The notes below the pieces were generated by a model, which had not been told where the DNA came from, did not search any database, and saw only the letters and a program-made list of their open reading frames with translations. The translations under genes and the position numbers were made by a program. 64,000 nucleotides of DNA from a virus (lineage: Duplodnaviria > Caudoviricetes): the IMG/VR virus record IMGVR_UViG_3300029288_000081, positions 107,467 to 171,466 of that record, one strand, 5' to 3'. Below, in pieces: positions 46,024-48,119 of the stretch (position 1 is its first letter; every line of letters starts with the position of its first letter).

Positions 46024-46860
46024 ATGTCGTACGCCCTCTCGCAGGTCGACCCCACACCGCCGCCGACGAGGCCGATGAACTGGCCGATGATCCTCGGCTG
46101 GACCGCTGTCGTCGGCATGACGATCGCCGTCTTCAACGGCACCATCAACCTCCAGGGTGGACGCGTGAAGGCGAACAGGCGACACAGGTCGTCGCGCAGG
46201 AGGTCGTCGCGCAGGCGTAGCCTGCGGCGCAACCCCCGCTACCGGATGTGGTCGGGCCCGGTGTACGCGAAGGACCTCGCGAAGGCGATCCGTGACGCCG
46301 GAGCGCACGACGTCATCGCTGGCACCGAGCACGTCATCTTCCGTACGGATGACCTCGAAGCCCTCAAGGCGCGAGCCGGATCCGCGAAGCCATTCCTCGA
46401 TTTCCGTGGCGTGAAGATGATGATGGCCAACGCCAGCCGCCGCTCCTCGCACGCGCGACCGAAGCCGCCGAAGTTCAGCGAGATGGCCATCTGGCAGGCG
46501 ATCGCCGCGGTGCGCGAGTCGGGCCGCTCCTCCGAGATCGCCAGCATCCTGCCGCCCGGCGTCGCCGCGAAGTTCAAGCACCTCGCCCCCGGGCTCTACA
46601 AGTACGGACGTGGGCCCAAGAAGGGCGAGGTCATCGTCCAGTTCAAGAACGCAGGACTCAAGGGCGCTCTCACCTCCACGCGCATCGGCGCCTCGAAGGT
46701 CGGCGAGTACCACTGGGTCGTCGACAACTTCGACCCGAAGTTCCCCGTCGCCATCCGCGGCATCGACGATCACGGGCGCACGTTCTTCCGGATCGAAGAG
46801 CACGCACGGAAGTTCGAGCGTGTGCCGGTCCGCGTCTCGCGCAAGACCGCAGCGCGGTGA
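46024..46860 (+). CDS. TM-anchored multi-segment protein
   Basis: MSY, TM, VKAN-Arg tract, LRRNP, domain, MMAN, domain. Confidence 0.7.
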   Translation: MSYALSQVDPTPPPTRPMNWPMILGWTAVVGMTIAVFNGTINLQGGRVKANRRHRSSRRRSSRRRSLRRNPRYRMWSGPVYAKDLAKAIRDAGAHDVIAGTEHVIFRTDDLEALKARAGSAKPFLDFRGVKMMMANASRRSSHARPKPPKFSEMAIWQAIAAVRESGRSSEIASILPPGVAAKFKHLAPGLYKYGRGPKKGEVIVQFKNAGLKGALTSTRIGASKVGEYHWVVDNFDPKFPVAIRGIDDHGRTFFRIEEHARKFERVPVRVSRKTAAR

Positions 46861-48119
46861 GCATGCCCAAGCTGCTCGCCAACGGCAGGCCGGAGGCCAA
46901 GGGTCGCCGATCATCCAACAAGGAGGTCGGCGACCTGATCCAGAAGGCCCGCGCGCAGGGCTGGTCCGTCCTGCACACCGGCAGCGGGCACTACGTCTTC
47001 CGCTCGCCCGACAAGACGAAGCCCCAGGTGATCGTGCCGAGCACGCCAGGAGGCGGCAACCGCTCGCTTCAGAACGCAAGAGCCCTGCTCAAGAAGAGCG
47101 GTCTCGTCATGAACCCGTACTACCACGCGACTCGTGCCGACTTCGCACGGCAGATCCTGGAGGAGCGCAAGCTCCGTGCACATCCGGCGAGGAAGTACGG
47201 CGGCCGCCCTGCCGTGTTCGCAGGAGACACGCGGTCTTCGACGATGGGAGACGCCGCGCTGAGCTGGTCCGACAGCAAGCACTCCCTGCACTTCGGGGCA
47301 CATCCCGAAGACGAGAACGTGCTGATCGAGTTCGAGGCTGACGAGCCCGATGACCGGCGCGGCCCGCACGGGCACGAAGCGGTCTGGTTCCACGACGTGG
47401 AGCTTCGCGACCCGAAGATCGTCACGCGCCGTCCTGGACGCATGGTGTGGAACGGCGGAGACGTCGCTGCGCGGTTCATGCGGCTCGTCAACATGACGCC
47501 TTCGCAGATCCGAGCATGGGCCAAGGACCCTCGTTCCAGGTGCTACTCGTTCGCCTCGACACGTGCACGTCTCCCGGCACTCGCGAAGCTGCGAGCCAAG
47601 CCGGTGAGCGAGTGGACGGCGAAGGACTACGCCTTCGCACGACGCGTGGTCTCGTTCAACACCCGCATGCTCGGTGCCAAGCGACGCGACGGGTGCCGAG
47701 ACGGCTACACCGTCTCTCTTCGGAACTGGGGACACGATCCGAGGTGCAAGCTCCCGGTGTCGTGCAAGAGCAAGAGGTCTTCGATGAAGAGGAACAAGCG
47801 ACGCGTTCGCAGGAACCCGCAGGTCTCGTACGGTCTGATCGCCATCGGCATCGCTGGTGTCGCGGCGCTGGCTTGGTGGGCTTCGCGGCCAGCCGTGCCG
47901 ACCACGCCAGCGCTCGCGGCGAACCAGAACGCAGCGGCTGCGGTTGCCGCGCAGCGTGAGCCAGAGATCGTCCGCATGATGGCGCGTGACCCTCGTCTCA
48001 CACGAGCGGAGGCTGCTGCGCGGTACGATCGCGCTGTCGGCGCTGTCTTCGCTGCGGCGTCTACGATCGCCGCGGGCCTGCGCCCCACGAGCGGCATGGG
48101 CAGCTACTATAGGACGTGA
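46857..48119 (+). CDS. Multi-domain polyprotein: HicA-like, ART-like, DUF3140-like and TM
   Basis: HicA-like GWSVLHTGSGHYVFRSP..VIVPSTP. ART-like YYHATRADFARQIL..AVF..LIEF..E. DUF3140-like LVNMTPSQIRAW..SLRNWGHDP. TM follows VRRNP. Confidence 0.7.
   Translation: MSMPKLLANGRPEAKGRRSSNKEVGDLIQKARAQGWSVLHTGSGHYVFRSPDKTKPQVIVPSTPGGGNRSLQNARALLKKSGLVMNPYYHATRADFARQILEERKLRAHPARKYGGRPAVFAGDTRSSTMGDAALSWSDSKHSLHFGAHPEDENVLIEFEADEPDDRRGPHGHEAVWFHDVELRDPKIVTRRPGRMVWNGGDVAARFMRLVNMTPSQIRAWAKDPRSRCYSFASTRARLPALAKLRAKPVSEWTAKDYAFARRVVSFNTRMLGAKRRDGCRDGYTVSLRNWGHDPRCKLPVSCKSKRSSMKRNKRRVRRNPQVSYGLIAIGIAGVAALAWWASRPAVPTTPALAANQNAAAAVAAQREPEIVRMMARDPRLTRAEAAARYDRAVGAVFAAASTIAAGLRPTSGMGSYYRT

Follow-up and report, generated by a model that had tools for sequence, protein, structure and literature searches.

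A membrane-anchored phage protein of exchangeable effector-like modules, with asparagine joints that may be cleavage sites

Why would a phage string several unrelated enzyme-like domains onto a single membrane protein, and place the same short asparagine motif at each of their borders? The question is raised by an open reading frame (ORF 46857-48119, plus strand) in a 64,000-nucleotide stretch of viral DNA, hereafter the window, which forms the final 64 kb of the 171,466-bp IMG/VR virus record IMGVR_UViG_3300029288_000081 (G+C content approximately 66%). The virus is uncultivated, and its source is metagenomes only. Read from GTG at 46857, the ORF encodes 420 amino acids; the public gene call (P0001) uses the ATG at 46863, two codons further on, giving 418. 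It holds four modules that evolve independently, namely a HicA-like domain (D1), a domain with an ADP-ribosyltransferase (ART) fold (D2), a DUF3140-like domain (D3) and a membrane anchor (D4). Here, we show that the clade of viruses to which it belongs reorders, drops and re-fuses such modules at joints of the form hydrophobic-x-x-Asn. That the protein is also a membrane-anchored string of independent effector cassettes, cut apart at these asparagines, is a reading we favour while placing it just short of evenly balanced.

Five Asn residues coincide exactly with the ends of modules: N9 (L-L-A-N|G, 46881), N86 (L-V-M-N|P, 47112), N199 (M-V-W-N|G, 47451), N313 (M-K-R-N|K) and N320 (V-R-R-N|P, 47814). 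All five are of the hydrophobic-x-x-Asn form, with Leu, Met or Val at position -3, compared with two of the nine other Asn in the protein (Fisher p = 0.010). An initial annotation, made from the letters alone, had claimed that every domain boundary coincides with this motif. The coordinates it quoted are indeed the codons of N9, N86, N199 and N320, the transmembrane helix does follow the Arg stretch, and the five Asn at module ends bear the claim out. Searched exhaustively with phmmer, 1.84 billion representatives gave 343 matches to the ORF, which form four separate envelopes (residues 13-86, 83-205, 201-308 and 324-419). In a full-length AlphaFold (AF2) model, made from a 29-row alignment (A6) and with a mean predicted local distance difference test score (pLDDT) of 79, low confidence is confined to residues 1-4, 12-17, 194-201, 313-350 and 413-420, while structural matches span residues 16-87 (HicA), 85-201 (ARTs), 205-297 and 352-406. 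No homology envelope, structural match or confidently modelled segment crosses an Asn site; domains spanning these sites, which would speak against the initial annotation, were not found. The motif also stands ahead of the first module, where a short N-terminal leader (46857..46883, plus strand; within the low-pLDDT residues 1-17) ends in L-L-A-N (N9) followed by Gly, and relatives in the clade start with M-x-R-R-N or similar at the same place. Considered in this ORF alone, the placement of Asn is suggestive: it excludes chance to a moderate degree, which is weak evidence.

The relatives supply the strongest evidence, and show what the joints delimit. P0002 (74-78% identical) contains all four modules in the order D2-D1-D3-D4. 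P0010, P0026 and P0032 consist of D1 and D4, with D1 joined directly to D4 in P0010 and P0026, and P0022 continues after D1 with Asn and an Arg tail. D2 keeps still more varied company; in P0017 it follows an unrelated N-terminal part and Asn-Pro, and ends in Trp-Asn and an Arg tail, while in P0003 it is preceded by an Arg leader and Asn-Pro and followed, in turn, by Trp-Asn-Gly, an Arg linker and a SprT-like domain. P0004 and P0036 carry two or three DUF4314-like repeats, each ending x-P-N, and then D2. At every joint, the x-x-Asn belongs to the upstream module and the residue after it (P1') to the downstream one, being Pro for D2 and Gly for D1 or D3. Since the x-x-Asn moves with the upstream module and P1' with the downstream module, the exchangeable unit runs exactly from P1' to P1. 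The positions recur strongly across the relatives: of 24 extended relatives, 12 have Asn at +3 after the final G-L of D1 (corrected p = 5e-11), while Asn-Pro stands immediately ahead of D2 in four of five and Trp-Asn six residues past D2 in six of seven. The Asn joints are followed by Pro more than by any other residue, the others often being Arg, Lys, Thr, Ser or Asn. The initial annotation had suggested looking for domain swapping at the Asn sites of homologous loci, and it is found there, in the permuted order of P0002, in the D1+D4 forms and in the SprT and DUF4314 fusions.

Exchange is also visible between whole genomes. A sister genome (complete, 161,502 bp, with direct terminal repeats) has a syntenic late block, in which the neighbouring ORFs at 45640, 49345 and 49668 have counterparts that are 60-70% identical. 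A tblastn search of the sister late block (L015) found no counterpart of ORF 46857-48119, of ORF 48116-48853 or of residues 45-278 of ORF 46024. As these genes lack a sister counterpart while their flanks are kept, ORF 46857-48119 is accessory cargo in a variable island (46156..48853, plus strand), made up of the C-terminal extension of ORF 46024, ORF 46857-48119 and ORF 48116-48853. The extension follows the same rule. The sister orthologue of ORF 46024-46860 (L015 18404-18688) is only 94 amino acids long, with a transmembrane helix, an Asn and a short Arg tail, whereas ORF 46024-46860 continues past its R-R-N-P joint with approximately 210 extra residues, forming two modules without a sister counterpart. 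Being longer than its orthologue precisely after R-R-N-P, it has had modules appended at the Asn site. In the sister genome, D2 stands at another place as a fusion with SprT, and D3 forms an ORF of its own, 135 amino acids long. At the far end of the window, SprT-like ORF 62820-63767 shares 43% identity with the C-terminal half of the sister D2-SprT fusion (P0003, L009 5705-6748), and its N-terminal module differs from that of P0003, representing another module exchange between the two genomes.

What, then, are the modules? D1 (residues 10-86, 46884..47114, plus strand, ending L-V-M-N86) has an alpha-beta-beta-beta-alpha fold like that of double-stranded RNA-binding domains (helices 20-33 and 69-80 and strands 37-40, 45-49 and 58-61 in the AF2 model). 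Foldseek matched it to Burkholderia HicA (6g26_E/F; prob 0.97, template modelling score (TM-score) 0.60-0.63, root-mean-square deviation (rmsd) 3.3-3.5, approximately 60 columns), and VIA matched residues 16-87 to pneumococcal and Thermus HicA-type chains (5yrz_D, Z 6.0, rmsd 2.4 with 56 residues aligned; 1whz, Z 5.9). Phage proteins annotated as HicA-like toxins in BFVD matched with TM-scores of 0.71-0.78, and PHROG 2089 at 8e-9. The Pfam family HicA_toxin (PF07927) scored 14.5 bits against the whole ORF and 18.3 bits against D1 alone, below its gathering cut-off of 27, and it matched 19 of 39 D1 relatives at E < 0.01 (best 8.6e-6); a D1 profile against PDB sequences gave chance-level rows only. 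His45, in the G-x-H motif, is the sole invariant column among 39 aligned relatives. With its fold matching solved HicA toxins and its His kept, D1 is confirmed as HicA-like at the level of fold and family relatives, as first annotated. Free-standing HicA-like proteins of 65-75 amino acids end 1-4 residues past the G-L that precedes N86. The annotation had also seen no hicB; likewise, PF15919 (HicB_lk_antitox) had no match in the 171-kb record and no HicB was found in the neighbouring ORFs, although PF05534 was not searched. The Macro family (macrodomain) had no match in the 171-kb record either.

D2 (residues 87-199, 47115..47453, plus strand, ending M-V-W-N199) opens with Pro87 directly at its first strand, and belongs to a rare family with seven homologues in all. 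Folded alone, it gave a confident AF2 model (pLDDT 86.3, predicted TM-score 0.78). The top 50 VIA matches of this model were all ADP-ribosyltransferase folds, with Z up to 7.8-8.2; they include TreTu (Z 7.8, rmsd 2.6, 86 residues aligned), KptA/Tpt1 (Z 7.7 to 8.2 for KptA), TreX, PltA, the pertussis and diphtheria toxins, PARPs, DarT and Arr, a homogeneous list even if the Z-scores are middling in absolute terms. Foldseek against PDB placed Arr, KptA and TreTu in its top rows, all with E > 0.1 and hence not significant. Language-model features (ESM) pointed to Arr-ms at 0.94 (24 of 30 matches), and an ESM Atlas shape search to DUF3990 and Tox-ART-HYD1 clusters. By sequence, D2 is more elusive: a Pfam scan found no curated ART family at E up to 1, a profile from eight D2 homologues found nothing among PDB sequences at E up to 10, and a second homologue search aimed at longer D2 fusions gave nothing further. 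Conserved residues include H90, T92 and R93 in the first strand and F121 in V-F-A (each in seven of seven), E174 (seven of eight) and D180 (eight of eight). Mapped by motif and strand order, these resemble the H-Y-E/D triad, with Phe for Tyr. The structural models thus confirm the ART-like claim of the initial annotation at the level of fold, as a putative ART of the Arr/Tpt1/toxin-like kind.

D3 (residues 200-313, 47454..47795, plus strand, ending M-K-R-N313) is all-helical and very basic (net charge +20), with its helices at residues 203-290 modelled at pLDDT > 90. Alone, it scores 22.8 bits (E 1.3e-4) against the DUF3140 family PF11338, below the cut-off of 25, whereas 21 of its 26 close homologues match the family (best 6.3e-23); membership in DUF3140, as annotated, is therefore transitive. 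Free-standing DUF3140 proteins start a few residues ahead of the F-x-R-L-V-N-M motif. A D3 profile against PDB gave rows at chance level only, and our literature search found no paper on DUF3140. A seven-residue Arg-rich spacer follows (N313|K-R-R-V-R-R-N320|P, 47796..47816, plus strand), lying within the low-confidence region 313-350. D4 (residues 321-420, 47817..48116, plus strand) then supplies the sole transmembrane helix of the ORF, at residues 323-343 (47823-47885), where the Kyte-Doolittle 19-residue maximum reaches 1.76 against 1.21 for the next best elsewhere. Its C-terminal part is helical and ends in a conserved G-x-G-S-Y-Y motif, and its free-standing homologues P0062 and P0132 begin at the transmembrane helix. 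By the positive-inside rule, D1-D3 and all Asn and Arg elements are predicted to be cytoplasmic.

A second motif, x-G-L-G, occurs just upstream of DUF3140 modules in other lineages (P0007, P0008, P0019 and P0049). It also follows M-S-Y starts in the membrane proteins of this genome, and the terminal G-x-G-S-Y-Y of D4 looks like its mirror image. Separately, the best BFVD match of the whole AF2 model was a 'prohead protease' of Halorubrum sodomense tailed virus 2 (E 3e-5, 261 columns); with an rmsd of 20.6 and a TM-score of 0.22-0.24, this is probably a local helical resemblance.

The association of Asn with Arg is not limited to this ORF. In a GC3-based set of 196 ORFs (GC3, G+C at third codon positions), M-x-x-N is found 58 times where 29.7 would be expected (z = 5.7) and N-R-R 26 times where 9.5 would be, while hydrophobic-x-x-N followed by Pro or Gly reaches z = 2.0 only. 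Arg/Lys tracts of at least seven residues have an Asn inside or directly beside them in 21 of 40 cases. Asn directly follows a long Arg tract in 8 of 30 (10.3-fold, p = 7e-7) and directly precedes an Arg/Lys tract in 5 of 40 (4.8-fold), and the seven-residue spacer between N313 and N320 obeys this genome-wide rule. The clearest two-sided case is the ORF at 51259-54078 of the window (939 amino acids), where several long Arg/Ser tracts, three of them near-repeats of approximately 25-32 residues and the rest shorter, are opened by x-x-N-G and closed by R-N. The Arg tails of the relatives and of the window also share a recurring R-R-T-S-R-like unit, which recalls phosphorylation-regulated Arg/Ser-rich nucleic-acid-binding tails.

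What could these joints be for? We infer that the chain is cut after the Asn of hydrophobic-x-x-Asn, and would call this nearly an even matter, if slightly on the doubtful side. Four observations lead to it: the Asn joints survive where Arg tails have gone; the motif occurs at extreme N-termini and before C-terminal tails, and a mere linker needs no such N-terminus; the order of modules is free; and in phage systems already described, targeting segments are taken off at a single short motif. The precursor would then consist, in order, of the leader, the HicA-like module, the Arr-like ART, the basic DUF3140 module, the Arg spacer, the transmembrane helix and the C-terminal anchor module. Cleavage would take place on the cytoplasmic, Arg-tail side of the membrane and would detach the RNase-like, ART-like and DUF3140 modules from the anchor; it might thereby activate them, as the initial annotation had proposed. 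The anchor and Arg tracts might bring the precursor into the particle, after which the detached modules might enter the host with the DNA. Packaging into the particle and entry with the DNA, by analogy with T4 and its Alt and internal proteins, is the part of this scheme that we hold to be rather unlikely. A wider reading is tentative, and we lean away from it without dismissing it: this clade of uncultivated phages of approximately 160-170 kb and high G+C, in which head and tail genes went unrecognised, may use an undescribed processing code, with Asn at P1, a hydrophobic residue at P4 and Pro tolerated at P1', which delimits Arg/Ser-rich handles and exchangeable effector cassettes. Under the same tentative reading, the cassettes would be HicA-type RNases, minimal ARTs, DUF3140, SprT, DUF4314 and others, and one anchored precursor would deliver several host-directed enzymes.

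A soluble enzyme could reach cytoplasmic Asn sites, and the candidate is a transglutaminase-core-like Cys protease encoded upstream, approximately 10 kb from ORF 46857-48119 (36025..36675, plus strand). This protein of 216 amino acids (with a possible start at residue 19) has a D-C-D-D ... H-T-H ... L-D-P pattern of Cys, His and Asp, its ESM features match at 0.97 to phage and viral clusters carrying PF01841 (transglutaminase core), and an 83% identical copy is present in the sister genome. Its link to the Asn joints is conjectural.

A number of findings weigh against cleavage, or against its generality. Although 5 of the 14 Asn of the ORF lie within the 74 linker residues, this enrichment is not significant (hypergeometric p = 0.08), and one hydrophobic-x-x-N, that of N268, falls within a helix of D3. 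Between D1 and D2, the joint is a short coil that the model predicts confidently (pLDDT of 86 for residues 81-90), so access to it may be limited. Among distant relatives, P0006, P0007, P0008 and P0098 have the same domains fused without Asn, so such fusions can exist without the site, and the DUF3140 family at large shows no Asn signal at its borders; the Asn rule is therefore specific to this viral clade. The putative protease is the most obvious candidate, but it has no Pfam match of its own and no known specificity for Asn, and neither Peptidase_C13 (legumain) nor Peptidase_C14 (caspase) had a match in the 171-kb record. Finally, most endopeptidases leave X-Pro bonds uncut, making Pro unfavourable at P1'.

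Several of these points fit with an uncleaved, beads-on-a-string membrane protein, in which illegitimate recombination fused neighbouring single-module genes and the joints and Arg runs are remnants of their tags, whose purpose would lie elsewhere, for example in targeting, in membrane topology or in the binding of nucleic acids. Ordinary proteases are disfavoured by Pro at P1', the C13 and C14 searches revealed no Asn-specific enzyme, P0006-P0008 are fusions lacking Asn, and single-module versions with an Asn and Arg tail do exist (P0022 and P0017), the fusion of which would give just such joints. Yet the fused forms lose the Arg run and keep x-x-Asn at each joint, including D1-D2 and D2-D3, where no tag function is evident, and the motif is also found ahead of the first module at the extreme N-terminus. 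The permuted order of P0002, with its joints kept, is also easier to reconcile with independent products than with a multidomain enzyme whose parts cooperate. We therefore consider the uncleaved protein a somewhat unlikely explanation, though one to be taken seriously.

Does the gene's setting indicate where its product goes? ORF 46857-48119 has a 4-nucleotide overlap with each neighbour, at the stop of the ORF before it and at the start of the one after it, and so sits in a densely packed, co-oriented gene block, which includes conserved small membrane proteins that have the transmembrane helix, the pattern of Asn and Arg and an end motif of the D4 type in common with it. When approximately 50 of the larger ORFs, not every ORF, were scanned against Pfam and PHROG, no capsid, portal, terminase, tail or prohead protease gene was recognised. 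The same scans gave helicases, RtcB/PhoH, glycosyltransferases, a methyltransferase, an M23 peptidase (at 95097-95999 of the genome), an HNH endonuclease, NUDIX, and replication and repair genes. With no head, portal, terminase or tail gene recognised in these ORFs, membership of the virion cannot be argued from context, a further point against delivery with the particle. Among cultured phages, the sole tblastn match of ORF 46857-48119 is a HicA-like gene of Arthrobacter phage Mufasa8, the candidate protease ORF 36025-36675 has no match, and the helicases reach 26-30% identity at most. The structural genes of the 171-kb record and of G001 are either extremely divergent or belong to an unusual type of particle.

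This setting also bears on the proposal that the protein, processed or not, is a membrane-anchored intracellular toxin or competition module (similar to a moron) instead of virion cargo, with its HicA-like and ART-like parts acting within the infected cell, perhaps in host shut-off, exclusion of competing phages or counter-defence. The gene is absent from the syntenic position of the complete sister genome, its modules are found in many other contexts, HicA and ART folds are typical of toxin-antitoxin and conflict systems, the positive-inside rule puts D1-D3 in the cytoplasm, and no virion genes were recognised nearby. However, translational coupling ties the gene into a co-oriented block in which the conserved members show the same grammar and end motif, and no antitoxin-like partner (HicB-like or macrodomain) was found, making a purely intracellular role seem improbable to us.

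Asn can also break its own peptide bond, and autocleavage of this kind is known at the N|PTH site of FlhB and in reovirus mu1. In asparagine peptide lyases, a folded domain sets Asp or Glu beside the Asn, and cleavage occurs in cis only; the autocleavage site of YscU is Asn|Pro-Thr-His (PMC3207474). Spontaneous or self-cleavage through a succinimide would dispense with a separate protease, and Asn-Pro and Asn-Gly are both the most labile Asn bonds chemically and the commonest joints here, with the known viral and secretion-system examples using an Asn nucleophile and cutting right after it; nevertheless, the Asn of this protein lie in coils, mostly low-confidence linkers between unrelated domains, with no folded catalytic context, and the joints often precede Arg, Lys, Thr, Ser or Asn instead of Pro or Gly, so this explanation is very improbable.

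If the Asn joints are cut, they would represent a specificity of phage maturation or processing that is not known from earlier descriptions, and a natural plug-and-play loading of different enzymes onto one carrier. They would then also show precisely where dozens of unknown effector modules begin and end in metagenomic phages, making these modules easy to mine. Even without cleavage, the locus identifies what its models suggest is a rare family of minimal Arr-like ARTs, and a HicA-like domain used without HicB inside a membrane protein; both are useful for annotation.

Compared with known systems, D1 shares the alpha-beta-beta-beta-alpha fold and the invariant G-x-H His of the HicA toxins of HicAB systems (PF07927), but is below threshold for that family (18.3 vs 27 bits), has no HicB-like partner by the PF15919 search, and is fused into a larger membrane protein. 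D2 has the minimal ART fold of roughly 110-140 residues seen in Arr, Tpt1/KptA and small polymorphic-toxin ARTs (TreTu and Tox-ART-HYD1); its predicted likeness to Arr and Tpt1 extends to a strand-1 His in Y-H-(A/G)-T, the aromatic residue of V-F-A and an acidic one where a late strand begins. It differs from them in having no sequence membership in a Pfam ART family or PDB profile, and in replacing the Tyr of H-Y-E with Phe.

The arrangement as a whole recalls MARTX toxins, which are secreted, bacterial proteins with effector arrays shuffled between strains, whose linkers are cut after Leu by a built-in, inositol-phosphate-activated cysteine protease domain. In both, a single chain carries effector modules that are independent of one another, undergo shuffling and have short linkers between them; here, by contrast, the chain has no protease module, the joint is an Asn and the gene belongs to a phage. 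Processing at repeated motifs is also known from adenovirus core and precursor proteins, where adenain cuts at Gly motifs with a hydrophobic P4 and the products include Arg-rich DNA-associated peptides, and from multi-domain plant precursors processed by legumain, which have Asn at P1 of repeated modules. The present protein shares with these the Arg-rich peptides delimited by a hydrophobic-P4 motif and the Asn at the proposed P1. Unlike them, it has Asn and not Gly relative to adenain, no legumain or caspase homologue was found in its 171-kb record, and the hosts and viruses are unrelated.

Among phages, the cleavage motifs known for T4 (L/I-x-E) and for phiKZ-like phages (A/S/G-x-E) end in Glu, and phage proteases are not known to cleave other than behind Glu, Lys or a small residue. 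The internal proteins and Alt of T4 (with capsid-targeting sequences, processed by prohead protease gp21) and the ejection proteins of phiKZ and SPN3US (gp175/gp245) have a targeting or pro-segment removed at a short motif, much as proposed here. Several cut sites in the SPN3US propeptides fit one motif (PMC10052503). A shared linear motif at segment ends is likewise present in our protein, as hydrophobic-x-x-Asn at five module ends and at the same places in relatives. In the T4 and phiKZ type, an ADP-ribosyltransferase is among the cargo and the products are delivered with the DNA, whereas injection here would be by analogy only. No homologue of their proteases or head genes was recognised among the approximately 50 ORFs scanned. 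The joint residue is Asn, not Glu, and where T4 and phiKZ substrates are single proteins with a propeptide, this one is a string of swappable enzymes on a transmembrane anchor. The theme of protease-delimited phage cargo is thus already known, but the Asn-based joint is unprecedented and the exchange of cassettes is unusually clear.

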